NCBI GenBank assembly: GCA_045631485.1
Contig: JAZQUU010000034.1
Location: 25,457 to 89,456, forward strand
From: Clostridia bacterium
GTDB taxonomy: Bacteria > Bacillota > Clostridia > UMGS1840
Reading direction: 5' to 3'
Length of the DNA: 64,000 nt
The notes below the pieces were generated by a model. The model was not told the origin of the DNA. It did no database searches and saw only the letters and a program-made list of their open reading frames with translations. A program made the position numbers and the translations under genes. This document shows positions 1-29,593 of the stretch, piece by piece (the first letter of the stretch is position 1; every line of letters begins with the position of its first letter).

Positions 1-3000
1 AAGTTTGCAAATTCGCAGTTTTTAAATACTACGCTATCAGCATAGTTTAAGGTAACCTGTGCCGGGAACATATAGCTTCCGTACCAGATTTCGCCACCCA
101 CACGCATATCGTCTGCCTGATTGAATGCCACACCGTTGGTGGTTGCATCATCATAAGCACCGTAGCGGAAGGAGATACCGTCAAACTCGATGTTGGTAAC
201 TTTGTTGGTTGCACTCACACCGGTAACAGTCATCAGACCATCGGTTACTGCACAATAGGTTTCTGCAGTGGTCATATCTTCGTTTGCGTAGGGATAGTAG
301 TACATCTTACGGGCATCTTTATCAAAGAAGAATTCACCGGGAGCATCCAGCAGGTCCATAGAGTTTTCCAAATAGAAGGAACCGGTGGGCTGAATGGTAG
401 AGGTGGTGGCATCATCATTTACGAAGATGTGATATCTGGGGAACGGAATGTAGATATACGCGTGTTCGTAACCGTAATAATCGCCGTAGGTGATTTTTTC
501 AACGGGGAAACGATGGTTTGCCCAGTTTTTCTGGAATACTACCTGCAATCTGGTATCATCGCCCAGAGTTCTGGGGAAGGTGGTATCCCATCTTTCGATA
601 TCTACCACAAAACCGTCTGCAACATGTACGTCATTCTGGGGATTTTCAGGTACAATAAGGTCTTTTCCGGTGTACCAAACGTCACTTCTTGCTAAAGTTG
701 CCTGGTAACCGTTTACATATAATGCTCTGGTTTCACGAGTGGTGGTAGAAGCTACCCAATAATTTTCGCCGGAAACTTTTTTCCATTTACCGGTTAAGGG
801 TTCCCCACCGGATAAAATAGGACGGTTATCGGGGTCCTCTGCTTTGATGATAACTTTGTAACCGTTCATACCGCCCATTGTCTGGTCGATTTCAATGGTC
901 ACATTACTGCGGTATACACCGGGAGCCACATGCACCACGATATCGCCGGTCATGGAAGCATTGTAGGATTTTACTTTGTTTAATGCCTGAGCAACACTTG
1001 CTAAGGGAGTTTCGGGAGTTAAACCGTCATTGGAAGATTTCCCGTTGGTTGCCACATACAGATTCATATACACGCCGGTGGAAGAATAGGGTTTTGCTTC
1101 TGCGATATCGGAGAATACCATCACTTTTACCTGGCTCTGTGCGGTTAAGCCGCTTAAAGTGCAGGTAACGGTGGTGGAGGTGGTTTTTAAGGTGTTTAAG
1201 TTGCCCACCATTTTGCTGCCCTGATATTCTGCCACAACAACGGTGGAGTTTGCGGGCATATCGGCGGTGTTGATAATCATTCTTGCGGTGCCTGTGGGTA
1301 ATTTGCTCACAGGAACATTGGAAGCATTATACAATTTCACCGTGGGACTGCTTGCTTCGGAAGCAATTACGGAATTGTATGCAGAAAGCATATCATCCAA
1401 AGAATCAAAGTTCTTTCCAACCATGGGCCAGAAGGACATTTCGGGATAGAAGATACCGGAAGTGTCACTTGCCACATCAATTCCGATTAAGGAACCGTGT
1501 TCGGATAAGATATTGTATGCTTCCATAGAGGTGGTAGCATCTTTGAATCCGTAAAGCAGGTGATAGGTTCTGCTGCTGGTGTTTTCCAGACGGAAATCGT
1601 CAAAGTAGAACACATCGCAGAAATAGGTGAAGCTGATGGTATGAGTACCCGCTTCTAAATTCAGAGAATAAATTTTTTCGCTCTGAATGGGATATGCTTC
1701 ATCCTTATGCAGGTTAAAATGCATGGTTTCGTAGGAGAGATAGGTTCCGTCAACGGTGATGTCAACAGAAACATCTTTCCAAGCGGCACCTCTTAGGTAC
1801 AGGTTATATACCCCGGTATCGGGAACGGTAACGGTGTAGGTAGAGGTGGATTCGTTGGCAGCGCTGATCACAGCTGCACCGTCATAAGTGGTTTTGGAAA
1901 CACCGCTTGCAGAGGTATAGCTTTCTGCTTCGGTGGTAATCATATACTCAGAATCGGTAATATTCGGAGTAGGAGTGGGAGTAGGAGTGGGTTTTGCAGT
2001 GGGAACGGGAGTTGCGGTGGGAGCAGTGGTGGGAGCAACAGTAGGTTCGGGAGTTGCCACCGGAAGATCTGCCACCTTCTTCACAAACTGCATATAGTCA
2101 GTGGAATCGTATCCTGCTTTGTCCAAACGACCAAAGTCGGTTTCAGAAAGCATAACGGAATAGGTTCCGATATTTTCAATTTTAATGGTATTAGCACCTT
2201 CCACAAAGTACAAGGGCTGGTCCTGATACATGGGACCGTTGGTCCAACCGGTCTGAGTCAGATAATAATCTGCATAATAGTCGCCGCTGGTCACACGAAT
2301 GGTGGTGTTGCCGCCAATCGCTTTTACCAAAAGCTGCATACCATACACGCCGGTATAGGGAGCGTTGAAGGTGTAGGTTGCATATTCTCCGTTTACCATG
2401 GTGAAATCAGCACCGCTTAAATGGGTTTCATCCATGTGCACATCTCCGGTGATTGCATCCATGCCGAAGCCACCGATGTAACCGTTGAAAGCAGGTTCTG
2501 CTTTTACGTTACCAATCCATTTGGTAATTGCTTCGGGAATGGGAGTAGGAGTGGGTGCCGGAGTGGGAGTGGGAGTCGGTTCGGGAGCGCCGGTTACTTT
2601 TACAAAGGGCAGAAAATCTAAAGATTTTTCTGCGCTGGTAGCGTCCAGACGACCGAAGTCGATAGAAGAAACAGTTGCATTGTTGCTACCGTTTAATGCT
2701 AATTTAAAGGTGTTTTTCCCTGCTTTGAAGTACATGGGCTGGTCCTGTTTGCAACCGGAGCTCCAACTTGTAGCAGTCACGTTGTAGGTTGCTTCGTAAC
2801 CATCCTCGGTGGTAACATACCAGTTTACAGGAGTACCACTGAACCAGTCGGTACGAATCTGCATTGCATACACACCGGTATAAGGCATATCAACAGTGAT
2901 ATAAGCCCAGTCCCCTGCAATCATGGTGAATGCACCGTTTGCAGCAAAGGGAGCACCGGAGGATGCCTGATAGTCCACACCTGCAACAGCATCAGCACCG

Positions 3001-3758
3001 TTGCGGAAGGAAGCTTTGATATCTTCCACAGTGGAGGTGTAGCCATTTTTATAAGCATCACTCAAATCACTATACGCACCGGGCCAGGTTAAAGGAGCTT
3101 CGGTGGGTTCCGGAGTGGGAGAAGGAATGGGAGTGGGAGTGGGAAGCTGCACGGGAGAATCCACGCTTTTTACTAAGGGTAAAAAGTCTAAGGATTTTTC
3201 TGCACCCTGTGCATCCAAACGCCCCATATCTAAAGCATTGATGATTGCATTGTTGTTCCCCATCAATTCGATTTTAATGATGTTTTTACCTTCTTTTAAG
3301 TAGATAGGCTGGTCCTGTAAACAACCGGAGCTCCAGCTGGGGGAGGTCAGATTGAACTGTGCCAGGTAATCTTCGTCGGTGGTAACGTGAACGGTGGTAG
3401 TGCCGTCGCCGCCAATCCATGCTGTGGACATCTGCAACGCATACACACCGGTGTAGGGAGCGGTAATTTCATAGTAACCCCAGTCACCCACTACCATGGT
3501 GAAGGAACCGTCTGCCCCAAAGGGAGCACCGGAGGATGCCTGATAGTCAACCCCGGCAACCGATTCGGTACCGTTAGATTTTGTGAAAGTGGTTAAACCG
3601 TAGTACTCACCCACATAGCCGTTTCTGTAGGAAGCGTCTAATGAGCTGAACTTACCGGTCCAGGTGGGGGTTGCCGCAGAAGCGGGCACTACCATTACGC
3701 TTGCCAGCATAGAAATCAACAAGCAGAATGATAATAATTTTTTCAATGCAATTTTCAA
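1..3758 (-). CDS. Secreted CBM-array / right-handed beta-helix protein, paralogue of 3837..8714 (C-terminus runs off the window start)
   Basis: Absent from the ORF track because it has no stop codon inside the window. Hand translation from TTG 3758 (GGAGGA 7 nt upstream) gives the signal peptide (M)KIALKKLLSFCLLISMLASVMVVPASA. Three tandem ~170-aa modules follow (AGVDYQASSGAPF...PYTGVYA(L/M)Q...QDQP(I/M)Y(L/F)K..GKN...SLDFLP(L/F)VK), each followed by a Pro/Thr linker. Then comes YVATNGKSSNDGLTPETPLASV...[27 protein letters not shown] and [29 protein letters not shown]. The frame stays open to base 3 (...VFKNCEFAN), colinear with [10 protein letters not shown] of the neighbouring paralogue. 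Confidence 0.85.
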   Translation of the reverse strand, partial: MKIALKKLLSFCLLISMLASVMVVPASAATPTWTGKFSSLDASYRNGYVGEYYGLTTFTKSNGTESVAGVDYQASSGAPFGADGSFTMVVGDWGYYEITAPYTGVYALQMSTAWIGGDGTTTVHVTTDEDYLAQFNLTSPSWSSGCLQDQPIYLKEGKNIIKIELMGNNNAIINALDMGRLDAQGAEKSLDFLPLVKSVDSPVQLPTPTPIPSPTPEPTEAPLTWPGAYSDLSDAYKNGYTSTVEDIKASFRNGADAVAGVDYQASSGAPFAANGAFTMIAGDWAYITVDMPYTGVYAMQIRTDWFSGTPVNWYVTTEDGYEATYNVTATSWSSGCKQDQPMYFKAGKNTFKLALNGSNNATVSSIDFGRLDATSAEKSLDFLPFVKVTGAPEPTPTPTPAPTPTPIPEAITKWIGNVKAEPAFNGYIGGFGMDAITGDVHMDETHLSGADFTMVNGEYATYTFNAPYTGVYGMQLLVKAIGGNTTIRVTSGDYYADYYLTQTGWTNGPMYQDQPLYFVEGANTIKIENIGTYSVMLSETDFGRLDKAGYDSTDYMQFVKKVADLPVATPEPTVAPTTAPTATPVPTAKPTPTPTPTPNITDSEYMITTEAESYTSASGVSKTTYDGAAVISAANESTSTYTVTVPDTGVYNLYLRGAAWKDVSVDITVDGTYLSYETMHFNLHKDEAYPIQSEKIYSLNLEAGTHTISFTYFCDVFYFDDFRLENTSSRTYHLLYGFKDATTSMEAYNILSEHGSLIGIDVASDTSGIFYPEMSFWPMVGKNFDSLDDMLSAYNSVIASEASSPTVKLYNASNVPVSKLPTGTARMIINTADMPANSTVVVAEYQGSKMVGNLNTLKTTSTTVTCTLSGLTAQSQVKVMVFSDIAEAKPYSSTGVYMNLYVATNGKSSNDGLTPETPLASVAQALNKVKSYNASMTGDIVVHVAPGVYRSNVTIEIDQTMGGMNGYKVIIKAEDPDNRPILSGGEPLTGKWKKVSGENYWVASTTTRETRALYVNGYQATLARSDVWYTGKDLIVPENPQNDVHVADGFVVDIERWDTTFPRTLGDDTRLQVVFQKNWANHRFPVEKITYGDYYGYEHAYIYIPFPRYHIFVNDDATTSTIQPTGSFYLENSMDLLDAPGEFFFDKDARKMYYYPYANEDMTTAETYCAVTDGLMTVTGVSATNKVTNIEFDGISFRYGAYDDATTNGVAFNQADDMRVGGEIWYGSYMFPAQVTLNYADSVVFKNCEFAN

Positions 3759-3836: not shown

Positions 3837-6800
3837 TTAATCAATGATAGCATCATCGGGAATGTGGAACATGGGAATTGTGCGCCAAGCAGGATAGTAA
3901 TCAACTTGTGCGGCACGGTCCTTATCTTCCACACCGGCTTCTGCCATAATTCTTAATGCTGTGGTTTTCCAAGATGTCTGATTGATGTAGTTGGTACCAT
4001 AGCTCACACCGGAAGTATCCATGGGGAAGGTGGCAAATCTTCTCGGGTCACCACCATCGGTGTGGTTATAAGCTGCATAGTTGTCATTTAAATTTACATA
4101 TTTTCTTGCAAAGAGCCAGAAGTCACCGGAATTGTTTGCTTTTTGTACCACGTTATCAGTCATTGCGATGTAACCGGTACCTTCGTCAAAGTAAACACCG
4201 CCGCGACGGTAGTTACCCGGGTCAATTAGGTAGTTATCATTTAAATGCATATTTTTCTGGTCGCCTAAGGTGTAAATCTGAGCACCGTCATCCAACACCT
4301 GGCAAACCTCTTCAATTTTATTGTAGGAAACAATGTGATTACCGGTGTCGCCGGGTTCGTAGTATCCCCAACCCCAACCGATACAGATGCCGCTGTAAGG
4401 TAGGTATTTGATGTCATTATGATGCACATTTACGGAATCCACATAATATGCTGCAACTGCAGGCAGATTCATAAATTCCTGTGCAATTCGGCGGAACACG
4501 TTGTTGCCGATTTCAATGTTCTTACAACGGCCGCCACCGGAGTAGTTACTGTTGTGAGTGAAATTGGAAACGGAAACGCCGCCGCCGGAAATATCGTGGA
4601 AATCGCAGTTTACCACTTTGGAATTGGTAACACCTTCTGTAAGATACATTGCAGAGGAGCCTAAGTTTGCAAATTCGCAACCGTCAAACACAACGGAATC
4701 TGCAAAGGCTACCTGAATCTGAGAATGCATCAAATGCTGAGAATAACCGGTTGCGGTACCGCGGCGAAGTTCATCTGTCTGGTTAAATGCTGCACCGTAG
4801 GTGGTGGCATCATCCCAGGCACCGTGTTTAAAGGAAATGTTTTTAAATTCCACATTTTCCACACGGTTTGTGGAAGAAGATCCCTGAACGGTCAATAAAC
4901 CGTCGGTTACTGCACAATAGGTTTCTGCAGTGGTCATATCCTCATTGGCATAAGGATAATAATACATTTTGCGGTTGGCTTTGTCAAAATAGAACTCGCC
5001 GGGCTCATCTAAAAGCGCCATAGCGTTTTCTAAGTAGAAGTCTCTGCCTTCCAAAGGTTGCACTGTGGAGGTGTGACCGCTTAACAACAAGGCATTGTAA
5101 TACGGATAGGTTGCATTGATGTAGGCATAGCTGGAATCGTAAGTCACGCTGTCAATGGGGAATCGCTGATTTGCCCAGGCTAAGTTGTAAACCATCTGCA
5201 ATCTGGTTTCCCCTGCCAGATCTTTGGGAAAATTAGGATAACTGGAAAGACTTACTTTTAGCCCGTCGGCAACATGGTATTCATTTTTCGGACTGGTGGG
5301 GGTGATGTATTCCCCATCGTAAACATTACTGCTTCTTGCCAGCACCGCCTGATAACCGTTCACATACAGGGCTCTGGTTTCACGGGTGGTGGTGGTTGCT
5401 ACCCAGTAATTCTTGCCGGAAACCCTGGACCATTTTCCGGTTAAGGGTTCCCCACCGGAAAGAATGGGTCTGTTATCCGGATCATCTCCCTGAATGATCA
5501 CCTTGTAACCATTCTGACCGCCCATAGTGGGTTCGATGTTGATGGTTACATTGCTGCGGTACACACCGGGTGCCACGTGAATGATAATATCCCCGGTCAT
5601 AGCGGAGTTTACGGATTTCACTTTGGTTAAGGCTTGTGCCACAGTTGCCAAAGGTGCATCGGGAGAGGTTCCTGCATTGGAGGAGCTGCCGCCGGGTGCC
5701 ACATAGAAATCCATATAAGTGCCGGAGGAGGTATAAGGAGTGATATCCTCCATATCGGTTAAGGCTAAAATTTTCAAAGTGCTTCCTGCTTGCACATCAG
5801 TTAAACTGAAGGAAACAGAAGAAGAATTGCTTTTTGCCGTCTGAGGCAGTTTTGCTAACTTGTTGCCGTCATAGATGGCACAAACTAAAGTGGTGTTGGT
5901 GGGAATATCTGCACAATCCACAGTAACGGTGGATTTGCCTGCGGGCAAGTCTGCCACCGACACGTTGGAAGCGTTTCTCACCTTTACGGTGGGATTTTCC
6001 AGTTCTTCGGCAAGCACTTCTTCATAGAGTGCCTTTAATTCTGCCGGAGTGGAATAATCTTTTCCAACCATTTTCCAGAATGCCATTTCGGGACAAGCTA
6101 AATCAGCAGTGTCGGCTGCCACATCCACATAGATGTAGTCCCCTGCGGAACGCAGTGCTTCATACATTCCCTGGGAGGTGGAAATATCTTTGATTCCGTA
6201 AAGAATCTGATATTCTTTGGAGTAGGTATCTTCTAAAGTGAAGGAATCAAAATAGTAGGTATCACAGTAGAAGGTGAATCCAATGGTATGTGTTCCTTTG
6301 GATAAGGGGAAGGTTGCCACACATTCTTCGTTGTAGGAGAAGGTGGAGTTTCTGTCACTCTGGAAATGAGCGGTTTCGTAGTAATATACGGTTCCGTCCA
6401 AAGCGATGTCAAAGGAAACATCCTTCCAGGCAGCGCCCTTCATATATAAGTTATAGATGGTGTCCTCTTCCACGGTTACTGAATAAGTAACACTGGATTC
6501 GGAAGTTGCGGTTGCCACAGAAGCACCGTTGTAGGTGGTTTTGGACAAGCTTCCGGATTTATAATTTTCTCCCTCATACACCGTTCTCATCGCTCTGTCG
6601 GAAACATCGGGGTTTACCGGATTGGGAGTCGCAGTGGGAGCCACGGTGGGAATGGGTGTATTGGTGGGAGCAGGAGTTGCGGTGGGGGTTGCAGTAGGAG
6701 TCGGCGTTTCGGTGGGAACAGGAGTTGCGGTGGGTTCGTCATCTTCACTTAACACTTTTAAATTCTGCAGATTAATCTGAGAACCCCATGTTTCGTGGTT

Positions 6801-8714
6801 TTTAATCCCATCGGAACCATCTGTCATAGACATTCTTAAGCCGTAAACAGCCGCAGTATTGGAACCGGTGTTCTTCACGGTTACAATGTTGGTGCCTTCT
6901 CTTAAGAACAGAAATTCCATATCCTGCTGTGCGGAATCTGCCCAACAGGTTGTCTGCCAGCTGTTACTTAAGGATTTATTCAATTCGGCATAAAAGCCGG
7001 TATCGGAAGACAATCGGAAGGTGTGAACCTTGTTATCGCAAACATTTAAGTAGGGATAAACAATCCCTGCCCCGTTTTTGGAAACTTCCGCCTGCAAGGT
7101 AACACTTGCACCTGGAGCTAATTCCACATACTGACCTGCAGTATCGGTTTTTGTACTGTAAGAACCGGAACCGCCAATCACATAGCTGTGAATACCGGTT
7201 GCGGTGCGTTCCCCAAAATAGGTATGCTCGGTAGCATAAGGAATGAAGGAAGTCTGCACATTGGAGAGCTTACTCATTCCGTTATTGCTCAACTTGTTGA
7301 TGGTGGGGGTGATATTGGTTTTACTTACGGAAAGTTTATTTTCCCCTTTGATCAGATAAATCACCTTGCCGTTTAAGAAACTGGTAGTCGCGGTAGAGCC
7401 GGTTTCGGCAGTGGTGGTCAAGGTGTTGGTAGTGCTGATGGAATATACCCCTGCATAAGGAGCATCATAGATATACACGCCCGCCGGTGTTGCTGTGGGA
7501 GCCGGTGTAGCGGTAGGTTTCACCGTCGGTGTAGGTGTTGCAGTAGGCTTCACCGTAGGAGTAGGGGTAGGAGTAGGAGTAGGAGTTGCGGTTGGTTTTA
7601 CTGTGGGAGTGGGTGTGGGCTTCACAGTAGGAGTGGGAGTGTTTGCAGGTGCCTTGGTGGGAGTGGGTGTGGGGCAGAATGTGGGAGTTGCGCCTTCTGC
7701 CGGCATATCGGAAACTTTTCTTACCAGAGGCAGAAAATCCAAAGAATCATAACCGGTGGCATCCAAACGGCCAAAATCGTAATCGGTCACCGTGAAGGTG
7801 GTATCACCCACATTGGAGATGACAATGGTGTTTACGCCTTTTTTAAAGTACATAGGCTGATCCTGCAAGTTATCGGGAATATTGGACCAACCTGTATATT
7901 CCATAAAGAATTCTGCGTAATAGTCACCGGACACTGCACGGATAACGCCGGTTCCATCTGATAACTCGGAAAGAAACAACTGCATTGCATACACGCCGGT
8001 ATAGGGAGCGTTAAAGGTGTAGGTGCCGTAATCGCCGGGTTCCATCGTAAAGGAACCGCTACTGATGTTGATAGCACTTCCGGAATAATCTCCGCTAAAG
8101 TCGGTGGCGGTGAAAGCTCCTATGTAGCCATTAAAGCCGGCTTCCCAGTCTGCTTTTCCCCACCAGGTGATGGTTTCTTCTTCCACATAGTCGGATTCTG
8201 AGCCGCTACCAACGGAAGAAGACAAAATCAGTTCACGGTAGTTAAAATAATTACCGTTATTTTTTATGATAATTTCGTTCACGCCTTGATTTAAGGGGAA
8301 GGAAACCAAATTTTCCAAATCAGTAAAATTCAAGGTGCCGGAAGTGGAAGGCAAGGTCACACTATACGCTTTGCCGTTCACCGTCACGGTGATGGAAGTT
8401 CTGGAGGAGGTTGCCGCATCTAAGGTTAAAGAATAGGTGCCTGCGTTTTCCACATTTACGCGGTAGGTCAGCCATTCGGAATTGAGCATTTCCACAAAGG
8501 TGCCGTAGTTTCCGCTGTAAACCTCCACGGGGTAGTATTTTTTTAAGTACCAGGTCTGGTCGAAGCCGTTGGGAGAGGTGTCACCATACTCCCCTTTGGT
8601 CAAACTGAAGTCGGTTGCTAAGATATGAATTTCGGTATAGGCGAACGCTGTGAGTGATGCAAGCATACTACATAGCATTGCAATTACAAGAATTGCAGAC
8701 AATAATTTTTTCAT
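3837..8714 (-). CDS. Secreted 1625-aa multi-module protein: signal peptide, several CBM-like beta-sandwich modules separated by two long Pro/Thr linkers, C-terminal right-handed parallel beta-helix (glycanase/lyase-like) module
   Basis: ORF track. The N-terminus [25 protein letters not shown] is a signal peptide. CBM6/35-style signatures are present ([20 protein letters not shown]..; [22 protein letters not shown]). PT linkers sit at about aa 340-405 and 660-690. The beta-helix N-cap is [53 protein letters not shown], followed by the motifs [23 protein letters not shown] and DGAQIYTLG. Confidence 0.85.
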
Positions 8715-9080: not shown

Positions 9081-9105
9081 GGAATAGAGAAAGATTTTCA
9101 AGCCA

Positions 9106-20129: not shown

Positions 20130-22076
20130 TTAGATGGCACCCAGAGCTTCCATGTAGGGAACTGCTGCTGCGGTACAAGCATCTTCGAATGCATCGATAT
20201 CAACGATACCTTTCATGGTGTTTTCCAGATCAGCCCATCTAGCTTCGAATTCGCCGGGTTTAGCACCTAAAGCGATACGGGTTTTGGATTCCCACTGTTC
20301 TCTGGTGGACCAGAATTCAACAACTTCGGGAATATCAGCATAGATAGAAGCCCAAATCTGAGTGGGCGGATAAGCTACAACGTTTTTAACGTGTTCACTT
20401 TCAGGCGGGAATCTGAAGCCGCCGTCGCCGGTTTCACCATAGTAGTATGCTCTGTTTAAGATTAAGGGGTTGTAGTTGGTGGTGTTGATGGGATATACGG
20501 GGAATCCGGAACCGGAGGTATCACCGAAGCCTAAAGTTTCACCATCTTTTAATGCGTTGGAATCGCCTTCTAAGAAGTACTGGTTGAATCTTTCGTCATT
20601 GAATTTTCTGATGGTTCTGCCGGTTTCAGGATCGGTTTCTTCGTGCCAGATGTCAGCGGACATATCCTGGGGACCCCAAGAAGCGATTTCTTCCCATTCG
20701 TTGGAGTACTGTTCGTCGATCCAGTTTAAGTACTGGTAAACGTCAGCTTCGCTCATGGTGGTGGTTAAAGCTAAAGAGTTCATCCACATAGATCTTTCGG
20801 TGAATGCAGGATATCTGGGATCGTTGGGGATCTGCATAATGAAGGGACGATATCTGAAGGGTTTGCCCATTTCTTCTAACTGGTCGTTTAAGTTACCAAC
20901 CTGGTTAAAGCTGTTAACAGCAGCAATTGCGTACTGACCGTTCATAACTTTTTCCTGATATAAGTTGGTGGGCTGTGCTAAGGATTCGGATTCGATAACT
21001 TCGTCGTTTAACATCTGGTTCTGCAGTCTTGCAGATTCTTTCACGATGTCAGACAGTAAGAATAATTCGTAACGTTTGGTCTGCCAGTTGATAGTACCGG
21101 AATAGCAATGGTTTTTGTAGCCCATTAATTCGGAACCAAACTGAGTTAATGCTAACCAGTTGTCACCACCGTTGTAACCGAAGGGATATACGGTTTTGCC
21201 GTCAACTTTGTAGTTTTTCGCCTGAATAGCGTACATAAAGTCAACTAACTGTTCGGTAGAGTAAATCGGGACATCCAGCATGATATCGCCTAAGGGAGCG
21301 TTGGTTTCTTCTAAGATTGCTACTAATTCGTCGTAAGATTTTGCATTGGGGAAGAAGTCTCTTAAAATGTCGTCACGAACATATAAGCACTGAGTAGATA
21401 AGAAGGTAACGTCAGTTTCATATTTTAACTGAGTTTCTCTGATGTACTGAACGTCTTCTTCGGGATATGCGGTGAAGTCGGGAGCGGTGTATTCCACGCC
21501 ATTGTAAGTCATTTTACCGGTGTAGGGTTCGTCATAGCTTACATGGATGTTGTAAGGAATACCGGTGATGTAGGTTTCGCCGTCTTTGGTAACGGTGAAA
21601 GCTTCCCAACATTCAGCGGGAGTTCTTGCCCACAGGTTGGGAGCAACTTTCTGAATCACTTCGGGATCTAAGTGATACAGAACGTTCATTTCGTCTAATT
21701 TGTTGAAGTGTGCAGGACCCTGGAAAGCGCCACAGAACACAACGTCGGGCATGTTTTTACCGGTTACAAGTCTGGTCAGCTTAGCATCCCAGGAACCGTT
21801 ATCATTACCGTAGATGTTTTTATAAACAACGTTGGTTTTTGCTTCCAGCCAGTCAGCTGTTAAATCGGTGAAGCCCAGGTCTGCGCCCATAGCAAAGTCA
21901 GTACCCTGAGTGTTCCAACCGATGATTTCGAGTACTCTTTCGGGAACGATGTAGTTACCGTTTTCATCGAATTCAACGGATGCTCCCTGTCTCTGTTTGC
22001 TGCCGCCGCAAGCAGCCAGAGAAAGAGCCATAGTTACTGCCATCAGTAACGCAAGGATTCTTTTCATGGTTTTCAT
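20130..22076 (-). CDS. Extracellular solute-binding lipoprotein of a carbohydrate ABC importer (unusually large, 648 aa)
   Basis: The lipobox is LSLAACGGSK after the signal peptide. Size and position match LplA/LipO-type sugar SBPs. It lies directly upstream of the exoenzyme gene and downstream of two permeases. Confidence 0.8.
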   Translation of the reverse strand: MKTMKRILALLMAVTMALSLAACGGSKQRQGASVEFDENGNYIVPERVLEIIGWNTQGTDFAMGADLGFTDLTADWLEAKTNVVYKNIYGNDNGSWDAKLTRLVTGKNMPDVVFCGAFQGPAHFNKLDEMNVLYHLDPEVIQKVAPNLWARTPAECWEAFTVTKDGETYITGIPYNIHVSYDEPYTGKMTYNGVEYTAPDFTAYPEEDVQYIRETQLKYETDVTFLSTQCLYVRDDILRDFFPNAKSYDELVAILEETNAPLGDIMLDVPIYSTEQLVDFMYAIQAKNYKVDGKTVYPFGYNGGDNWLALTQFGSELMGYKNHCYSGTINWQTKRYELFLLSDIVKESARLQNQMLNDEVIESESLAQPTNLYQEKVMNGQYAIAAVNSFNQVGNLNDQLEEMGKPFRYRPFIMQIPNDPRYPAFTERSMWMNSLALTTTMSEADVYQYLNWIDEQYSNEWEEIASWGPQDMSADIWHEETDPETGRTIRKFNDERFNQYFLEGDSNALKDGETLGFGDTSGSGFPVYPINTTNYNPLILNRAYYYGETGDGGFRFPPESEHVKNVVAYPPTQIWASIYADIPEVVEFWSTREQWESKTRIALGAKPGEFEARWADLENTMKGIVDIDAFEDACTAAAVPYMEALGAI

Positions 22077-22170: not shown

Positions 22171-23058
22171 TTAACCTTTTACCGCACCAACATTGATACC
22201 TTTGATGAAGTATTTCTGCAAGAAGGGATACACCATCAGAATCGGTAAGGTGGTAACAATCAAGGTTGCTGCTTTTACGGTGTCACCGGTAACACGGGGA
22301 ACATTCTGCCCTTTACTCATAGCAGACTGCATAGACATCTGGTTTGCAGTTTCTGCTTCTTTTACCAGACGCATCATTAAATACTGCAGAGTATGTAATT
22401 CGGGGTCGGTAACGTAAATCAAGGTAGAGGTCCAGTCGTTCCATGCACCAACGGATACCCACAACGCTACGCAGGCAACAACAGGTAAGGTCATGGGGAA
22501 GATAATTCTGAACATGATGATTAAATCGTTCGCACCGTCAATCTTCGCACTTTCTTCCATTTCGGGAGGCAGTTCCTGAAGATAAGAACGGATAATAATC
22601 ATATTATAGAAGCCGAACAAACCGGGAAGGATATATACCCAGAAGTTATCCAATAAGCCCATGTTAGAAATGTTGATGTAGCTGGGGATGGTACCAACGG
22701 GGATATAACCGGGTAACATTAAGAATAAAGTTAAGAATTTTCTGTAAGGTAATCCTCTTCTGGTCAGGCCGTATGCAGCTGCATAGGTTACCAGCAGAGC
22801 CAAGGTGGTGGCGCAGATAACTCTTAATACAGAAATTTTCGCCGCCTGCATAAAGGAGGGGTTAGAAAATAAGGTAACATAGTTTTCCCAGGTGAAATCT
22901 CTGGGGATGATGGTGATACCGCCTGCCATCGCATCTCTACCGTCGTTTAAAGAAATCGCTAACTGATTTAAGTACGGATAAACAGAGATGACGCAGATAA
23001 GTACCATAATGATGGCGTTAACCACACTGAAGATTTTTTCTCCTAAACTTCTTTTCAT
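22171..23058 (-). CDS. Carbohydrate ABC transporter permease (LplC/AraQ-type)
   Basis: A multi-pass membrane protein with the EAA-like loop (EESAKIDGANDLIIMFRIIFP). I prefer the ATG at 23058, preceded by AAGGAGGAG that follows the upstream stop. The ORF track starts at 23079. Confidence 0.85.
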   Translation of the reverse strand: MKRSLGEKIFSVVNAIIMVLICVISVYPYLNQLAISLNDGRDAMAGGITIIPRDFTWENYVTLFSNPSFMQAAKISVLRVICATTLALLVTYAAAYGLTRRGLPYRKFLTLFLMLPGYIPVGTIPSYINISNMGLLDNFWVYILPGLFGFYNMIIIRSYLQELPPEMEESAKIDGANDLIIMFRIIFPMTLPVVACVALWVSVGAWNDWTSTLIYVTDPELHTLQYLMMRLVKEAETANQMSMQSAMSKGQNVPRVTGDTVKAATLIVTTLPILMVYPFLQKYFIKGINVGAVKG

Positions 23059-23072
23059 TTTGATACTCCTCC

Positions 23073-24068
23073 TTACCAAATACTCTGTTCGGTTACTTTC
23101 TTGGAAATCCAGTTTGCCAAAGTTACCAAGAACAAGCTAACCAGACCCTGGAACAGACCGAATGCGGTAGTAGCGGAATAGTCACCGCCCATAATACCAC
23201 GACGATATACGATAGTACCGATTACTTCGTTGTCCAACTGAGTAAATGCGTTCTGCATACCGAATACCTGCTCGAAGTTTACGTTTACCAAGCCGCCCAA
23301 GGACATAATCAGAATGATTACCATGGTGGGTTTGATGGAAGGCAGGGTGATATGCCAGATCTGTTTCCATTTGCCGCAACCGTCAATGCTTGCTGCTTCA
23401 TACAGACCGGGGTCGATACCGGTGATAGCTGCAAGGAATACAACGGAGGAGTAACCAACGCTCTTCCATAAGTGAGAGAAGAACATGATGGTTAAGAAAT
23501 ACTCGGATTTCATTAAGGGGTTTGAGGGAACCCAATCCTTAATAAGAATGCCCATCAACTGGTTGAAGGGACCTTCTTTTGCCAGGAAGGTGTATAACAA
23601 ACCGATAACGGAAATCCAGGATAAGAAATGAGGGAAGTATGCAATGGTCTGAGTCACTTTCTTAAACCATTTACTTCTGATTTCGTTAAACATTAAGGCT
23701 AAGATAATCGGGAAGGGATAACCTCCGAATAAAATAACCAGACCGAACACAACGGTGTTCTTAACTGCTTTGAACATTTCGGGATCTTTGAAGATGTTGA
23801 TGAAATGTTCAAAACCGTAGTTAGCTGCCCAGGGAGAACCCAGGATACCGTCTACGGGATGGAAATTCTTGAATGCCATAACAATACCGTACATCGGGAA
23901 GTACGAGAAGATGATTGTTACCACAATCGCCGGCAGAATCATTAAGTATGCTCCGCTGAATTTCCAGAGGTTGAAGAAAAGACCACGTTTCTTCTTAGGT
24001 GCTGCAACAAGCTCGGTGCCAACAGGAGCCACAGCTTGTTCCATTTGCTGTTCCATTACTTTTTTCAT
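23073..24068 (-). CDS. Carbohydrate ABC transporter permease (LplB-type)
   Basis: A membrane protein with the EAA loop (YEAASIDGCGKWKQIWHITLP). I prefer the start MKKVMEQQ at 24068, preceded by AAGGTGGAATGAG. The ORF track extends to 24137. Confidence 0.8.
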   Translation of the reverse strand: MKKVMEQQMEQAVAPVGTELVAAPKKKRGLFFNLWKFSGAYLMILPAIVVTIIFSYFPMYGIVMAFKNFHPVDGILGSPWAANYGFEHFINIFKDPEMFKAVKNTVVFGLVILFGGYPFPIILALMFNEIRSKWFKKVTQTIAYFPHFLSWISVIGLLYTFLAKEGPFNQLMGILIKDWVPSNPLMKSEYFLTIMFFSHLWKSVGYSSVVFLAAITGIDPGLYEAASIDGCGKWKQIWHITLPSIKPTMVIILIMSLGGLVNVNFEQVFGMQNAFTQLDNEVIGTIVYRRGIMGGDYSATTAFGLFQGLVSLFLVTLANWISKKVTEQSIW

Positions 24069-24322
24069 CTTTGTCTCATTCCACCTTACTTTAATGATTT
24101 TTTGCGTTTGGAACACGCGGATTCTTCCGCACTTCAATTTTCGAACCGCCTACCCCCGAATCGGTTTTCACAGACGACAAAATGGACAAAGTTCACCCTT
24201 TTTTTATAGGAGTGGACATTGCCCTGCCCGCAGGTATCATCGTCACAAAAAACGACGCCCGGGAATCGGTTCGTTCAGAAATTGTAGTTTTTGGTCGAAC
24301 CCAAGTATGTTATTTTGTCTAT

Positions 24323-24351: not shown

Positions 24352-24686
24352 CCCATAATCTGCTTTTTTTATATCCGAAAATTTGCTTTTTTTCAATCAT
24401 ATCCTATGTTTTTGGCAGATTTTGGGTCTTGACACCGTCAAATAACACTTTTTTGTAAAAAAATGGGAATTTTTGAGGTAAAATTTTGCATTTAGCTTTT
24501 GGTCGGATTGCGAAAAAGATGCAAAAGCACATTTTTGACAAATAAAAGCAGATTTTCGGGGTATCAAAAAAGCGAATTTTAGGTTTACAAACAACTCAAG
24601 ATAATTTATACTGATATCAAGATGGTGCAGTCTGCAAAAAACAGACTCGCGTCCCCTCATATTCAGGATCGAAAGGATTGAAAAAT

Positions 24687-26369
24687 ATGGCAAATTATGA
24701 ACTGAAGTTCAAACAGGTTTCTTCTCTGGAAAAAGTGTTTTTCGATAAAGAACCCACTCTGGACTCCATCAGTGGCGGTTCCGCTTTAAAAGGCGAAGAA
24801 TATTCCTATCAGATTGCTTTCACCAAAGTGTTCCGCAAGGACTGGTGGGCAGGAAGAAGCGATATGAAAATCAGCGTTAATTCCGAGCTGGCACCCTATA
24901 TCACCGTGAGAAAAGTACGAAATGTGCCTGTGGAACTGGCTGCATTCCCCACCAAACACGATGACGGATATTATTCCTTAAACTCCGGAATGTATCCCGA
25001 TCCTTTGATGCCCATCAGCGAGGAGGATCCCGTTTATGCAGTTTGCTACAAATGGCACGCACTCTGGGTAAGCATCCGTGTTCCCGAAGATTGCAAGCCG
25101 GGTGTTTATCCCATCGAAGTTGTGTTTGAAACCACCGAGCCTCACGACGATTACAAGGGCTCCGTTGTGTTCAATCTGGAAGTTATTGATGTGAAGCTTC
25201 CCAAGCAGGAAATGATTTTCACCCAGTGGTTCCATTGTGACTGTATTGCCGATTTGCACGACTGCGAAATTTTTTCCGACAAGCATTGGGAAATGATTGA
25301 AAAATACATCCGTGTGGCTGTGGATAACGGCGTGAATATGCTCTTAACCCCCATCTTCACTCCCCCTCTTGACACTGCATATTTATCCGAAAGAAAAACC
25401 GTTCAGTTGGTGGATTGCTATTGTGATAACGGCAAATATTCTTTTCAATTTGATAAGCTTGACAAATGGATTGACATTTGCTTAAAAAATGGCGTTCAAT
25501 ATTTTGAAATGAGCCATCTGTTCACTCAGTGGGGTGCGGTTCAGACTCCCAAAATCGTTGTAATTGCAGACGGCAAGGAAGAAAAACGCTTCGGATGGCA
25601 CGTGGAAGCAAAAGAACCTATCTATAAAGAATTCATTGATGCAATGATGCCCGAGTTGGTTGCTTTCTTAAAAGCAAAGGGCATTCAGGACAAAGTTTAT
25701 TTCCATGTTTCCGACGAACCCTTCTTAAGCTTAGGTCATTTGGAAACGTATAAATATGCGAAAGAATTGTTGGCTCCATACACCGAAGGATTCAAAATGC
25801 TGGATGCTCTTTCCGACATTGATTTCTATAAAGAAGGTCTGGTGAACACTCCCGTTCCCGCTATCGACCATATTGAAAAATTCCTGGAAGAAGACATTAA
25901 AAACCGTTGGGTTTACTATTGCTCCGCTCAGGCGAAGGATGTGTCCAATCGTTTCTTGTCTCAGCCCTCTCCCCGTAACAGAATTATGGGAACCCAGATG
26001 TTTAAATACGATTGTGTGGGCTTCCTCCATTGGGGCTACAATTATTTCTACTCCATTCTGTCAAAAGGTGTGATTAACCCCTTTGAAACCGTGGATTCCG
26101 GCGGAGCATTCCCCGCAGGGGATGCCTTCAGCGTGTATCCCTACGGTGATGACGTGGTGGAAAGTATCCGTTTGAAAGTATTCAAAGAAGGCATTCAGGA
26201 CTACACCGCTATGCACCTTTTAGCAAGCTACAAAGGCAAAGAATTTGTGGTGAATCTGATTGAAGAAATCGCAGGTCAGGAAATCCGTTTCGACAGCTTC
26301 CCCTACTTTGGCGATTACATTCTCCGTTATCGTGAAAGAATCAATCAGGAACTGAAAAACCTTATCTAA
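24687..26369 (+). CDS. DUF4091-domain protein (GH123-like glycoside hydrolase candidate), cytoplasmic
   Basis: A 560-aa ORF with no signal peptide (MANYELKFKQVSSLEKVFFDKEP...). The overall pattern matches my recollection of DUF4091 proteins, the domain found in GH123 beta-N-acetylgalactosaminidases. ATG 24687 with AAAGGA upstream is preferred over the track's TTG at 24678. Confidence 0.6.
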   Translation: MANYELKFKQVSSLEKVFFDKEPTLDSISGGSALKGEEYSYQIAFTKVFRKDWWAGRSDMKISVNSELAPYITVRKVRNVPVELAAFPTKHDDGYYSLNSGMYPDPLMPISEEDPVYAVCYKWHALWVSIRVPEDCKPGVYPIEVVFETTEPHDDYKGSVVFNLEVIDVKLPKQEMIFTQWFHCDCIADLHDCEIFSDKHWEMIEKYIRVAVDNGVNMLLTPIFTPPLDTAYLSERKTVQLVDCYCDNGKYSFQFDKLDKWIDICLKNGVQYFEMSHLFTQWGAVQTPKIVVIADGKEEKRFGWHVEAKEPIYKEFIDAMMPELVAFLKAKGIQDKVYFHVSDEPFLSLGHLETYKYAKELLAPYTEGFKMLDALSDIDFYKEGLVNTPVPAIDHIEKFLEEDIKNRWVYYCSAQAKDVSNRFLSQPSPRNRIMGTQMFKYDCVGFLHWGYNYFYSILSKGVINPFETVDSGGAFPAGDAFSVYPYGDDVVESIRLKVFKEGIQDYTAMHLLASYKGKEFVVNLIEEIAGQEIRFDSFPYFGDYILRYRERINQELKNLI

Positions 26370-26435: not shown

Positions 26436-27989
26436 ATGTATAAAATATTACTTGTGGATGACAATTATGTCCATCTGCAGAGTCTGCTCAGCTATATTGA
26501 GCCGGAAGAATTTAATATCAGCGGCATCAAAATTTCCCAAAGCGGAACGGAGGCTCTTGAAATCTGCAAAGAATTCAGACCCGATGTTGTTATCACAGAC
26601 ATTTCCATGCCGGAGCTTGACGGGATTGAACTGACAAGTGAAATCCGCAAAATGGGAATTGATGCTCAGTTTATCTACATCAGTTGCTATGACGATGTGG
26701 AATATTTCAGGCGCGCCATCGACAATCAGGTGTTGGCGTATCTGATGAAGCCCATCATTCCCGAAGAACTGAAAAATGCCATTCAAAAGGCAATCAGCAA
26801 AGCGGCAAAAAACATCGAAACCGCCAACAGTTTGCAGCTTGGACGGGAAAATTATGTGTATCGTCTGCTTTCTTCGGACAACACGGAGGCATCTCATTTA
26901 TATGAGGCTGCCCCCGCTCTTCTGATGCAGGATTACAAGCATTTTATTGTGGTGAAAGCAAAATTCCCGGAAGCGCAGGAAGATGTTCTTTCTGCCTACC
27001 ACGATTTTAAGGACTTTCCCGAATTGTCCAACCGCGGAATTTCTTCCGTGGTGCTTCCCGACGGAGCAGACTCCATCCTCATTCTCTTTATGAGTGAGCA
27101 GGAGGGAGATTTTCAGGATATCATCCGCAGTGTGATGTGCAATCATATCAAGGATTTGTTCGACCGCTACGCCGTAACCGTGAAGGCAGGCGCCTCAGAC
27201 ACGGGCGGTAATCTGTTCGAATTAAAATCTCTGGAAAAACAGGCAGATTCTGCTTTAAAAACCAATCTGGAACTGATTCGTTCCGACTATATTGCCTACT
27301 CTGATATTTCCATGAAAAACCTTTCGTTTAACTTTATTGCATATAACGAAGCCGTTTCCGGTCTTGTGAGAGCAGACACCACTCCGGCAGAAATCAGTCA
27401 GTTTATCAGAACCTTTAATTTCTCCGAGCCCGAATGCGACGAAACCCTTTTAAAAGAGCTTTATTTATCCACCGTTTCGTCCATTCAGTCCGTGCTCTTA
27501 AAAAACGGCATTGATATTGCGCAGATTGTGGGCAGAACCGACCTTTCTTACCATAAAATCAACCGTTTTTCCGACCCGGAGCATTTTCTCATCTGGCTCA
27601 GAAACATTCTCACATTAACCGGAGAATATTTAAAGAATTACAAAGGGAAATCCCAGTTTGCCTTGGTGCAGAAAACCATCAATTATATTCACAAAAATTT
27701 CCCCACCATTTCTTCTATTGAGGAAATTGCATCTCAGCTGTTTGTGAGCTATTCCCATTTGCGAAATGTGTTTAAAAAAGAGCTTGGAATCACCATTTAC
27801 GACTATCTGCTTTCGGTTCGTATGGAAGAGGCGAAAAAGCTTCTCTCCACCAGTAAAATGAACCTGACTCAGATTGCCTACAAGGTGGGTTACAGCGATT
27901 ACGATTATTTTAAAACCGTTTTCACCAAGTACAACGGCATCACTCCCCGAGAATTTCAACAAAACAACAATAAAACCACCGAAAACTGA
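26436..27989 (+). CDS. Two-component response regulator with AraC-type HTH output (YesN-like)
   Basis: The N-terminal receiver is MYKILLVDDN...DVVITDISMPELDGIEL. The C-terminal AraC HTH is ..IEEIASQLFVSYSHLRNVFKKELGITIYDYLLSVRMEEAKKLL..IAYKVGYSDYDYFKTVFTKYNGITPREF. Confidence 0.9.
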   Translation: MYKILLVDDNYVHLQSLLSYIEPEEFNISGIKISQSGTEALEICKEFRPDVVITDISMPELDGIELTSEIRKMGIDAQFIYISCYDDVEYFRRAIDNQVLAYLMKPIIPEELKNAIQKAISKAAKNIETANSLQLGRENYVYRLLSSDNTEASHLYEAAPALLMQDYKHFIVVKAKFPEAQEDVLSAYHDFKDFPELSNRGISSVVLPDGADSILILFMSEQEGDFQDIIRSVMCNHIKDLFDRYAVTVKAGASDTGGNLFELKSLEKQADSALKTNLELIRSDYIAYSDISMKNLSFNFIAYNEAVSGLVRADTTPAEISQFIRTFNFSEPECDETLLKELYLSTVSSIQSVLLKNGIDIAQIVGRTDLSYHKINRFSDPEHFLIWLRNILTLTGEYLKNYKGKSQFALVQKTINYIHKNFPTISSIEEIASQLFVSYSHLRNVFKKELGITIYDYLLSVRMEEAKKLLSTSKMNLTQIAYKVGYSDYDYFKTVFTKYNGITPREFQQNNNKTTEN

Positions 27990-28000
27990 GGTGTCACACG

Positions 28001-29593
28001 ATGAAAAAACCGATACGCAAAAGTTTACTGGAACAGATTTTATACGGTAACATCCGCGTTATCGGTTTTTTTGTGTTGCTTGTGTGGATTTACGGGATGA
28101 TTTCGGTGTCGTATAACACCTATCAGACAGAGCTTATGCAGCTTAGCGAGGATTTAACCACCTGCACAGACACGGTGGAGGAATCCCTCCATCAGGCCAT
28201 TATTCACTCGGAGCACATTGTGCAATCATCCTATATCAACGACGCCCTGAAGCAATCGGAATATTCCATCGATGAAATGTTGGAAATGCTGGACTTTTCC
28301 AACGAAATTATGGTGGCATCCTCCGGCACGCAGAACAGTCCGAAAATTTTCACCCCCAATGAAACTCTTTTTGAATCCCGTTGGTATTCCCATTGCTCCA
28401 ACCTGGCGGAATATCAAACCGTTCTGGAGCGTTTTGAAACCGAAAAATCGGACATTGTTTTCAGCGAAACCATCGAAAAAATGAACATGGATATGACCCG
28501 TGTCACCATGTATCGCAGAATGCCGAGAAACCCCGGAAATATTCTGCGTTATCAGATTATGCTTCAAAACAACAATGTATCGAGCATTCCTGCGGAGATT
28601 GTGTTTTTCTCCGATAAAAAGGCATCGGATACCTCCAATTATCTGTCCGACCCCATCAATGACAGTCTCACCTGCGTGATAAAAATTCCCAAAGCAGCCC
28701 TGAAGCAACGATGCATCTGGGTGTTGGTTGCGGGATTGATTATCCTAATGATTCTCTTTGGAGCAATTATTCATATTTCCCGTAAAACCGCCCGTTCTAC
28801 CCTGCAGGAAATCTACCATTTTATGGAAACGATAGACAGAGAAGACCTGCTTTATGACAGTGAATTTTTCCGAAAGGAATACGACATCTACGAACTGAAC
28901 ACCATCAAAGAAACCTTGCATAAGCTTGCAATGGATTTAAAAGAATATCACGACACAATCAAAAATGCGGAGTTGGAAAACAAGCAACTGGAAATGGAAC
29001 GTCTTTCCATGCAGTTGGACCCCCACATGCTCTATAATTCCCTATCCTCCATTCGTTTGGATGCCTACCGCATCAAAAACGAAAAAATTATGAATCTGGT
29101 GGATAATATGGCGCTTTATTATCGGGAAATTTTAAAGAAAGACCGTAAGTTTATCCCCGTTCGGGATGAAATTGAAACCATCAAAAAATATCTGTTTATC
29201 AACGAATTGTCTCACGAGAAAAAATATCCTCTGACCGTGGAAATTGAGCCTTCGCTTCTTACGCTCTCCATTCCGCCTCAGTTCTTCCACACCTTCGTGG
29301 AAAATTCGGTGGTGCACGGGCTTTCCGGTGCCAAAAACGATTGTGAAATCAAAATCACTATGGCGGAAAAAGACGGTGAAATCATCACCGAAATTTACGA
29401 TAACGGCTACGGAATCACTCCCGAAAAATTAGCAGAATTAAACAGCGGAACCCAGGCAAAAAAACATATTGGTATTTCCAATTCCCAAAAACGAATGAAG
29501 CTCTTTTTCGGAGAAGAAAGCTCCATCCGTTTTGAAAGCGAAAAGGGAAAATACACCAGGGTAATCATCCGCTTTAAAAAGCCGTCGGCATAA
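28001..29593 (+). CDS. Membrane sensor histidine kinase (YesM-like, His_kinase/HATPase_c)
   Basis: Two TM segments flank a ~200-aa extracytoplasmic domain. The kinase motifs are LQLDPHMLYNSLSSI (H-box region), VENSVVHG and DNGYGI. It is adjacent to the AraC-type regulator. Confidence 0.85.
   Translation: MKKPIRKSLLEQILYGNIRVIGFFVLLVWIYGMISVSYNTYQTELMQLSEDLTTCTDTVEESLHQAIIHSEHIVQSSYINDALKQSEYSIDEMLEMLDFSNEIMVASSGTQNSPKIFTPNETLFESRWYSHCSNLAEYQTVLERFETEKSDIVFSETIEKMNMDMTRVTMYRRMPRNPGNILRYQIMLQNNNVSSIPAEIVFFSDKKASDTSNYLSDPINDSLTCVIKIPKAALKQRCIWVLVAGLIILMILFGAIIHISRKTARSTLQEIYHFMETIDREDLLYDSEFFRKEYDIYELNTIKETLHKLAMDLKEYHDTIKNAELENKQLEMERLSMQLDPHMLYNSLSSIRLDAYRIKNEKIMNLVDNMALYYREILKKDRKFIPVRDEIETIKKYLFINELSHEKKYPLTVEIEPSLLTLSIPPQFFHTFVENSVVHGLSGAKNDCEIKITMAEKDGEIITEIYDNGYGITPEKLAELNSGTQAKKHIGISNSQKRMKLFFGEESSIRFESEKGKYTRVIIRFKKPSA

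Follow-up and report, generated by a model that had tools for sequence, protein, structure and literature searches.

A conserved locus of ruminant-hindgut Clostridia combining tandem multi-CBM GH141 proteins with a predicted cytoplasmic exo-beta-N-acetylgalactosaminidase

In Gram-positive polysaccharide-utilisation loci (PULs) of gut Firmicutes, such as those by which Roseburia and Eubacterium use xylan and mannan, a cell-attached endo-enzyme with several carbohydrate-binding modules (CBMs) is accompanied by a lipoprotein solute-binding protein (SBP) and two permeases, cytoplasmic exo-glycosidases and a local regulator. Normally, one surface enzyme of a classical glycoside hydrolase family (GH10, GH26) is combined with several cytoplasmic enzymes. 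The locus considered here spans positions 1 to 29,593 of a 64-kb stretch of DNA from a Clostridia bacterium (64,000 nucleotides; contig JAZQUU010000034.1, positions 25,457 to 89,456, assembly GCA_045631485.1, UMGS1840 lineage), hereafter called the window. It follows the same logic but uses three to five GH141 enzymes, two non-catalytic proteins made of CBM arrays and a single cytoplasmic enzyme predicted to be specific for N-acetylhexosamine (HexNAc). It is proposed, with a probability of about 0.7, that this locus is a Gram-positive PUL in which a beta-N-acetylgalactosaminidase (GalNAc-ase) acts on the products of the GH141 enzymes.

Family GH141 has more than 1000 listed sequences and a handful of characterised members, which display three unrelated activities. 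These are an alpha-L-fucosidase acting on rhamnogalacturonan II (RG-II), a weak endo-xylanase and endo-fucanases (PMC12786026, PMC5593877). The founding member, BT_1002 from Bacteroides thetaiotaomicron (PDB 5MQP), shares with the window enzymes a catalytic domain over about 520-530 residues, the GH141_M insertion domain, the aspartates and Q336. It is, however, a single-domain, periplasmic, exo-acting alpha-L-fucosidase from an RG-II locus with a Gram-negative SusC/D system. In the present system, GH141 is joined to three or four CBMs, occurs in three to five tandem copies, is secreted or anchored by surface-layer homology (SLH) repeats, and stands in a Gram-positive setting with an ATP-binding cassette (ABC) importer and a GalNAc-ase. 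Xyn141E (Cthe_2195), a GH141-CBM6-dockerin endoxylanase from Acetivibrio thermocellus, is likewise a secreted Clostridia protein joining GH141 to a CBM6-type module; judging from its published description, it is endo-acting on a polymer, and its aspartate pair D540/D577 is equivalent to that of the window enzymes (PMC5593877). Unlike the present proteins, it is cellulosomal and has one CBM rather than an array, and hemicellulases of families GH43, GH2 and CE1 take the place of a GalNAc-ase in its operon. Finally, the endo-fucanases Wf141_1, Wf141_2 and Wf141_4 of Wenyingzhuangia fucanilytica provide a precedent for several GH141 paralogues in one locus attacking a complex polymer endo-wise (PMC12786026). 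In these fucanases, a Trp occupies the BT_1002 Q336 site, the second aspartate belongs to an 'RxD' motif and the cleft, which accommodates sulfated fucan, is electropositive, whereas in the window enzymes the Gln is kept, the second aspartate lies in a Y-F/L-D-E/Q context and no sulfatase domain was found by Pfam among the locus proteins scanned.

The core of the locus consists of five consecutive minus-strand genes, named A to E: A (1..3758; partial, open at the window edge, with 1252 residues in the window, its orthologues having about 1525-1533 at full length), B (3837..8714; 1625 residues), C (9106..12174; 1022 residues), D (12510..15965; 1151 residues from an MKK start, the open reading frame (ORF) being open to 16013) and E (16135..20079; 1314 residues). 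The minus-strand ORFs of the whole array match the coordinates of a sequence-only reading made earlier, and the five co-directional giant exoproteins that it had described, with the motifs that it had quoted, are all present in the ORFs and translations. All five proteins begin with a signal peptide comprising a basic n-region, a hydrophobic h-region and an AxA-type cleavage site.

The sequence-only reading had also pointed to a module of about 600 residues in A, B and E, which it left unassigned, judging that no CAZy family could be given. This has to be revised: by sequence homology, the beta-helix module is a GH141 domain, a family with characterised members since 2017. The GH141_M insertion domain (Pfam PF21231; gathering cut-off 27) scores 34.6 bits in A, 38.0 in B and 44.9 in E, with E-values of 2.2e-08 for A and 1.5e-11 for E. 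Using phmmer, the last 620 residues of B match BT_1002 (PDB 5MQP) at an E-value of 3.9e-41 over module residues 2-528, and protein E does so at 5.2e-43. The Pfam Beta_helix family, with a cut-off of 25.9 bits, is found in E (30.7 bits, 3e-07) and falls under the cut-off in B (21.1 bits). Homology to 5MQP implies that the GH141 modules would fold as right-handed parallel beta-helices. Of the earlier suggestion of a beta-helix glycanase or lyase, the glycanase part is retained, as a GH141 match. A lyase is unlikely because pectate-lyase-like beta-helix matches are sub-threshold and both the GH141-specific insertion domain and the aspartate pair are present.

The essential aspartates D523 and D564 of BT_1002 and its Q336 (PMC12786026; D523 and D564 also in PMC5593877) align with D1476, D1510 and Q1312 of B, the offset of 5 in the chain index of 5MQP having been checked with these same residues of PMC12786026. 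The predicted catalytic codons of B are found at 4287..4289 (D1476, aligned to D523) and 4185..4187 (D1510, aligned to D564, in the motif VYFDEG), and those of E at 17536..17538 (D848) and 17437..17439 (D881), all on the minus strand. The GH141 part of A ends at the window edge, before both aspartates. In an alignment of 104 near-full-length homologous domains, the aspartate pair is invariant (104/104) and the Gln is kept in 103, E included. The GH141 domain of A is 62% identical to that of B over 360 residues, and B and E are 36% identical. Because of this 36-62% identity, the paralogues probably differ in specificity or attack mode. A search with the GH141 module alone returned 455 relatives, the nearest of which beyond the clade are 54-57% identical; none is functionally named.

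Divergently from the array, at 24678..26369 (+), lies a gene for a DUF4091 protein of 563 residues without signal peptide (likely start, ATG at 24687), which matches GH123_cat/DUF4091 (PF13320) at 4.9e-105. This protein aligns almost without gaps over 550 residues with PDB 8K2L and 8K2M (2.3e-155), and matches 8K2N at 2.4e-97. Matches are at 5e-33 with Group 3 structures, and with GH123 proper they cover the sequence partially (6e-11 for 5L7R, 1.2e-06 for 5FQG); GH123 sensu stricto was rejected on these weak partial matches, and the enzyme belongs to the sister Group 4. The three best-matching entries were deposited as 'monosaccharide-releasing beta-N-acetylgalactosaminidase', and we infer from the entry pattern in PMC11087588 that 8K2L and 8K2M correspond to NgaP2 and 8K2N to NgaLy. 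Group 4 consists of strict exo-beta-GalNAc-ases that use substrate-assisted catalysis through a DE motif (Sumida et al., PMC11087588). The corresponding motif in the window enzyme (D346/E347, in FHVSDEP; 25713..25718, (+)) is invariant in 47 homologues, and the GalNAc-contacting residues W196, D244, W298 and F489 of NgaP2 are kept as W184, D232, W285 and F479. With its DE motif, its contact residues, the 550-residue alignment and the lack of a signal peptide in common with NgaP2 and NgaLy, the cytoplasmic DUF4091 enzyme is predicted from homology to be a 'Group 4' strict exo-beta-N-acetylgalactosaminidase of this group. Its family comprises 611 clusters at E <1e-30. Catalysis of this kind depends on a 2-acetamido group; oligosaccharides entering the cell are therefore expected to end, on the non-reducing side, in a beta-HexNAc, most likely GalNAc, which speaks against ordinary plant fibre as the substrate. 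The earlier statement that the substrate is not deducible was in this respect too pessimistic, as a Group 4 GalNAc-ase constrains what is imported.

The association of these components is conserved. Eight loci from different species-level metagenome-assembled genomes (MAGs) keep the same order: histidine kinase, response regulator and GalNAc-ase and, divergently, permease, permease, SBP, E, (C), D, B and A. Regulator, ABC importer with its binding protein, secreted glycanases and cytoplasmic glycosidase are clustered in each of them. The DUF4091 enzyme is the best-conserved protein of the locus across species (86-90% identity). MAGs from the colon of water buffalo, the caecum and rectum of water deer and the rectum of roe deer, together with other MAG sets, contain orthologues of E that are 64-85% identical to it. 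The source of the window is an uncultured Clostridia lineage of ruminant hindguts, in which the locus is conserved in at least eight species-level MAGs. Three orthologous arrays (loci L100, L016 and L017) extend further than that of the window, with up to five tandem GH141 genes encoding 1307-1933 residues: E and D are followed by four further GH141 genes in L100 (JGI Ga0307249_10004700), and in L016 E is followed by two non-catalytic genes, three GH141 genes and a gene for a 1057-residue SLH/Big_5 protein. Because orthologous loci hold one or two more GH141 genes beyond A, the array is incomplete in the window, which cuts it short at the left edge; the locus continues past A. No description of a locus combining GH141 with GH123/DUF4091 was found in the literature library that was searched. 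The novelty attributed to the system at first sight does not extend to the catalytic family, already characterised, but holds in that no matching described PUL was found and that the known activities are not transferable.

Uptake is attributed to three minus-strand genes upstream of E. The one nearest to E encodes a 648-residue lipoprotein (20130..22076, (-); lipobox LAAC) without a Pfam match. A profile of nine of its orthologues matches PDB 9PMY ('Extracellular solute-binding protein family 1') at 1.2e-09, and 9PMY is a xyloglucan-oligosaccharide binding protein (PMC12710961). The lipoprotein is best regarded as a putative, very divergent member of the large CUT1/'family 1' group of sugar-binding proteins. 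Upstream of its gene lie those of two permeases with BPD_transp_1 domains, at 22171..23079 (-) and 23073..24137 (-) (6.4e-14 and 2.3e-15). As orthologue alignments begin at residues 24-32, the true start of the second permease is probably about 25-30 codons inside the ORF. Lipoprotein and permeases together are predicted to form a CUT1-type ABC importer, for which no ATPase gene was found in the locus. Downstream of the DUF4091 gene lie a response regulator with AraC-type output (26436..27989, (+); Response_reg 3e-22, HTH_18 1.1e-21) and a YesM-type histidine kinase (28001..29593, (+); His_kinase PF06580 2.9e-15, HATPase_c 4.1e-08), a two-component pair in identical position in 8/8 related loci. 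Lipobox and Pfam searches bear out what had been said at first reading of the lipoprotein SBP, the two permeases, the signal-less DUF4091 protein and the regulator pair.

The modules of 130-180 residues that recur in the giant proteins correspond to about 22 divergent CBM6/CBM35-like beta-sandwiches, four in A, four and a half-module in B, five and a half-module in C, six in D and three in E. They sum to ~3,380 residues, or roughly 10 kb. An earlier estimate of ~20 kb spent on binding modules corresponds to all five genes, catalytic modules included. Modules of E are above Pfam threshold (CBM_6, 1.9e-17, 64.2 bits; CBM_35, 9.9e-08, 32.8 bits), and modules M1, M2 and M3 and those of C and D are under the Pfam cut-offs. 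In hhalign comparisons of non-iterated profiles with the domains of E, the probability is 95% for M1 and M1c against E's CBM35 and 94-97% for Bn and M2, and D2, D5 and D6 reach 93%, 84% and 72%, respectively; D3, D4, M3, C2 and C3 connect via iterated searches within the module pool only. A pooled profile of the 22 modules, which includes E's own CBM6 and CBM35, matches crystal structures of agarase CBM6, CmCBM6, CtCBM6, CsxA CBM35 and CITase CBM35 (best E-value, 2.5e-12). The AlphaFold2 (AF2) model of M1, the 'AGVDYQASS' module, is a beta-sandwich (predicted local distance difference test (pLDDT) 72; predicted template-modelling score (pTM) 0.74) with a low-confidence N-terminal extension of ~55 residues and a C-terminal helix corresponding to the SLDFLPLVK part. 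Its top Foldseek matches in the PDB include CtGH5-CBM6, the CBM35 2W47 and agarase CBM6, with a probability of 1.00 and a template-modelling (TM) score of about 0.4-0.5 on the target. As anticipated at first reading, the recurring modules are modelled with a beta-sandwich (jelly-roll) fold, in M1 as in D, and they are predicted to bind carbohydrate.

Proteins C and D, 42% identical over ~890 residues, are GH141-less paralogues composed of CBM-like modules and of a helical and immunoglobulin (Ig)-like tail common to A and B. This tail is homologous to the segment directly before GH141 in A and B (hhalign, 89%), and therefore C and D end exactly where GH141 would start. The helical and Ig-like segment is also present in a standalone GH141 protein of a related MAG. 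Neither C nor D has a Pfam family above cut-off or a relative in the PDB. In the AF2 model of D, six beta-sandwiches are accompanied by a helical bundle (985-1063) and a further, terminal beta-sandwich, and no part looks catalytic. A whole-chain Foldseek search with this model gave multi-beta-sandwich proteins only (Cry protoxin tails, Vip3, GH101) at a TM of about 0.1; such matches fit a CBM array and are uninformative on family. Only 20 relatives of D were found, all within this clade. C and D are kept full-length across species at 50-82% identity, D-type proteins showing about 60% in every related locus. The full-length retention of D-type proteins therefore argues for functional genes and not decay products.

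From the domain identities, conservation and synteny set out above, we infer a substrate and a sequence of events. The CBM arrays and the non-catalytic proteins would retain a glycan, polymeric or particulate, on the cell surface, where the GH141 paralogues, one of them wall-anchored, would cut it into oligosaccharides. These would be imported by the ABC system, after which the DUF4091 enzyme would take off the non-reducing-end beta-GalNAc by substrate-assisted catalysis, and products or intermediates would induce the operon through the YesM/YesN pair. In outline, capture and depolymerisation outside the cell, ABC import, cytoplasmic trimming and induction had already been proposed by the sequence-only reading, and both the domain content and the synteny in eight genomes agree with that scheme. 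If the cytoplasmic enzyme acts on the imports, the substrate would be a beta-GalNAc-containing glycan and not xylan, pectin or cellulose. Such a glycan could come from the host (mucin- or glycolipid-type, or a glycosaminoglycan) or from microbes (a capsule or cell-wall polymer).

Several observations weigh against this proposal. The three known GH141 activities are not transferable at the modest similarity to BT_1002, and from homology the bond cut cannot be named. The GalNAc inference hangs on one enzyme, which is divergently transcribed and may not be co-regulated with the array, and genes for GalNAc catabolism are not seen in the 64-kb window. In a metagenome scan run with the 47-sequence alignment, 80 loci with 40-50% identical GalNAc-ase homologues contained one weak GH141 neighbour and no CBM-like modules; the same scan with the single GalNAc-ase protein found nothing. 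The GH141/GalNAc-ase pairing, found in at most 1/80 of these other loci, is specific to this clade and without independent support elsewhere. The usual neighbours in the 80 loci are ABC sugar permeases and binding proteins, and the general role of the Group 4-like enzyme in trimming imported oligosaccharides is supported. The identity of the SBP is based on gene position, the lipobox and one remote profile match, and the model of D, with a mean pLDDT of 64, is of moderate confidence only. In addition, CBM6 and CBM35 are classically tied to plant-hemicellulose and pectin enzymes, and this, like the herbivore gut habitat, favours a plant substrate.

The last points lead to the main alternative, an explanation that we consider unlikely, in which the locus is directed at the plant cell wall. 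Its target would be xylan, or a pectic or hemicellulosic side chain bearing fucose or methyl groups, as in RG-II or xyloglucan, with GH141 enzymes similar to Xyn141E or BT1002 and a DUF4091 enzyme that is incidental or not a GalNAc-ase. In its favour, the habitat is the hindgut of herbivores, and both of the earliest-characterised GH141 enzymes attack plant polymers, Xyn141E also bearing a CBM6. Q1312 of B corresponds to BT1002 Q336 and Xyn141E Q356, not to the fucanase Trp; among solved structures, the one closest to the binding protein is that of a binder of xyloglucan oligosaccharides; and a GH141 gene elsewhere, 40% identical, adjoins GH29, GH95 and GH88 genes. However, accessory enzymes such as a xylosidase, an arabinofuranosidase, an esterase, GH29 or GH95 are all missing from the locus. 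Its sole cytoplasmic glycosidase keeps all the named GalNAc-recognition residues and has a mechanism that requires an N-acetyl group, and the gene is syntenic and best conserved in 8/8 loci. The xylanase activity of Xyn141E is very low (92 mU/mg), so that xylan may be atypical for GH141. Moreover, beta-GalNAc polymers are essentially not known from plants.

It has also to be considered whether the CBM arrays and GH141 enzymes serve in adhesion and antagonism, binding and attacking the envelope glycans of other microbes, with uptake being secondary. Candidate targets are GalNAc-containing teichuronic or teichoic acids, capsules, and methanogen pseudomurein or methanochondroitin; beta-GalNAc would suit many microbial envelope polymers. 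The investment in binding, with about 22 modules and two proteins that have no catalytic part, is unusual, the GH141 genes form a large tandem array that reaches five copies in relatives, and the C/D family is limited to this clade. Nevertheless, an ABC importer with a cytoplasmic exo-glycosidase and YesM/YesN is the standard layout of a catabolic locus, Pfam scans gave no peptidase, pseudomurein-binding (PMBR), LysM or toxin-like domain, and nothing links the locus to a particular prey. We regard this explanation as very improbable.

The PUL acting on a beta-GalNAc-containing glycan is preferred on these grounds, and it can tentatively be extended, with more doubt than confidence. The GH141 enzymes of the clade might have a fourth specificity, the endo-hydrolysis of a non-plant heteropolymer into fragments starting with beta-GalNAc, the GH141-less proteins being dedicated to capture. 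The heteropolymer may come from the host, as a glycan of glycosaminoglycan or mucin type, or from microbial envelopes, where teichuronic acids, capsules and the GalNAc-containing glycans of methanogen walls are candidates. A fourth specificity, if true, would make this the first GH141-based pathway for an amino-sugar polymer, and would point to an unrecognised carbon source or route of inter-microbial attack in the ruminant hindgut; should the substrate prove to be plain xylan or pectin, this would be one more gut PUL and nothing else. A conserved locus of three to five GH141 paralogues tied to a beta-GalNAc-ase yields a concrete prediction of a new GH141 substrate, and would supply a biological role for 'Group 4' GalNAc-ases, which lack assigned natural substrates. 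It also suggests that an abundant uncultured Clostridia lineage of the hindgut spends more than 25 kb on a non-fibre glycan. C and D would offer a clean example of the loss of a catalytic module yielding dedicated glycan binders in a Gram-positive system.

The five proteins differ in the arrangement of their modules. In A, the signal peptide precedes three M1-type CBM35-like modules, one M2 CBM6/35-like module, the helical and Ig-like region and the first ~360 residues of GH141 (nt 3..1082). B contains, after its signal peptide, a CBM35-like module, M1, a long Pro/Thr linker, a short half-module and M3, then a Pro/Thr linker, M2, the helical and Ig-like region and a complete GH141 (nt 3840..5729); the domain scan recognised no anchor in B. 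In C, the signal peptide and a short half-module precede five beta-sandwich modules of CBM6/35-like type, and the chain ends with a helical bundle and an Ig-like domain; D is composed of a signal peptide, one M1, five more CBM6/35-like modules, the helical bundle (residues 985-1063) and the terminal beta-sandwich (residues 1065-1151), both without a catalytic module. E carries, after its signal peptide, two CBM6, GH141 (nt 17110..18984), a CBM35 and SLH repeats (about nt 16138..16620). Among the window enzymes SLH is confined to E (Pfam, 5.7e-17), which by this domain content is the sole wall-anchored enzyme of the window, in agreement with the first reading. The AGVDYQASS motif occurs twice in A and once in D, PYTGVY three times in A and also in B and D, and SLD(F/Y)LP(L/F)V(K/R) twice in A and also in B and D. 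The motifs YVAxxG...P(L/F)A(T/S), PGEF(Y/F) and K(M/I)YYYPY are found in A, B and E; GWGWG and DGAx(I/V)YTLG occur in B and E only, because the window edge cuts A before them. NCBIfam matches of the giant proteins to internalin and ClfB involve low-complexity linkers only, and these identities were rejected. A cellulosome was rejected likewise, neither dockerin nor cohesin having been found by Pfam in the five proteins or in the extra orthologous genes.

GH141 genes also occur in other contexts. Two distant members (P0022 and P0122) are standalone genes amid housekeeping genes. A third (P0108, in locus L018 of GCA_965347695.1), 40% identical to the module of B, is surrounded by fucosidase-type genes of GH29 and GH95, by a GH88-like gene and by genes for a CBM9/CBM6 protein and for an ABC importer accompanied by a response regulator of AraC type; this seems to be a separate GH141 locus, oriented towards fucose. 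No consistent gene partner emerged from the contexts of these three more distant GH141 genes. Extra GH141 genes (958-1242 residues) lie outside any sugar locus in L014, from the same MAG as L006, and in L019, some of these standalone genes adjoining ribosomal-protein or PNPase genes. GH141 is strongly expanded in these hindgut genomes.

The remainder of the window (29963..64000) is a housekeeping region that includes DUF436, VanZ, MinD, ComEC, the delta and alpha subunits of DNA polymerase III, ComF, CDF and ZIP metal transporters, a flavodiiron-type protein, a MiaB-like radical SAM protein, an AMP-binding enzyme and an indolepyruvate or 2-oxoacid ferredoxin oxidoreductase-like protein. A tRNA at 36920..36993, outside the locus, is the sole Rfam match. 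A small sugar-catabolism cluster (38683..42822, (+)), 9 kb off the locus, encodes an FGGY kinase (best match xylulokinase, below cut-off), a DUF4432 protein and a 459-residue protein distantly like sulfoquinovose and L-arabinose isomerases; in a related MAG (L014), a 463-residue Fucose_iso_C protein adjoins a standalone GH141 gene. With GC at 0.42-0.48 throughout, base composition does not point to a mobile element around the locus, and scans for promoters and terminators gave counts equal to those in shuffled sequence.

A structured element of ~65 nt occurs three times, at 9016..9080 (-), 12426..12490 (-) and 42935..43001 (+), just downstream of the stop codons of C, D and the isomerase-like gene. 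Its core reads CTCGGCGTAC-N4-6-GTACGCCTTCGG(A/G)T(G/A)ACCCC..CGGG (three matches, zero expected). The predicted fold, with z-scores of -3.4 to -6.2 per copy, is an outer stem around two hairpins; the outer stem varies yet stays paired (GCAAACC/GGUUUGC, GAAAACC/GGUUUUC and CAAUCAAGCC/GGCUUGAUUG). The element has no Rfam match, and its exact pattern was not found in 19 related loci. Its function could be that of a 3' stabiliser or of a terminator; alternatively, it may be a small repeated element. Two G+C-rich hairpins, at 8886..8918 (-) and 12276..12310 (-), lie about 120-170 nt upstream of the start codons of B and C; both are followed by ACCCGAA and their stems differ (CGGCAGGAG...CTCCTGCCG and GGGGCAGGG...CCTTGCCCC). 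They may be sites of intra-operon processing or attenuation. Finally, the non-coding DNA 3' of C (8980..9098) and that 3' of D (12391..12508) are 82-91% identical (repeat families D15 and D18), mostly above the identity of the adjacent coding DNA of the two paralogues (72-87%).

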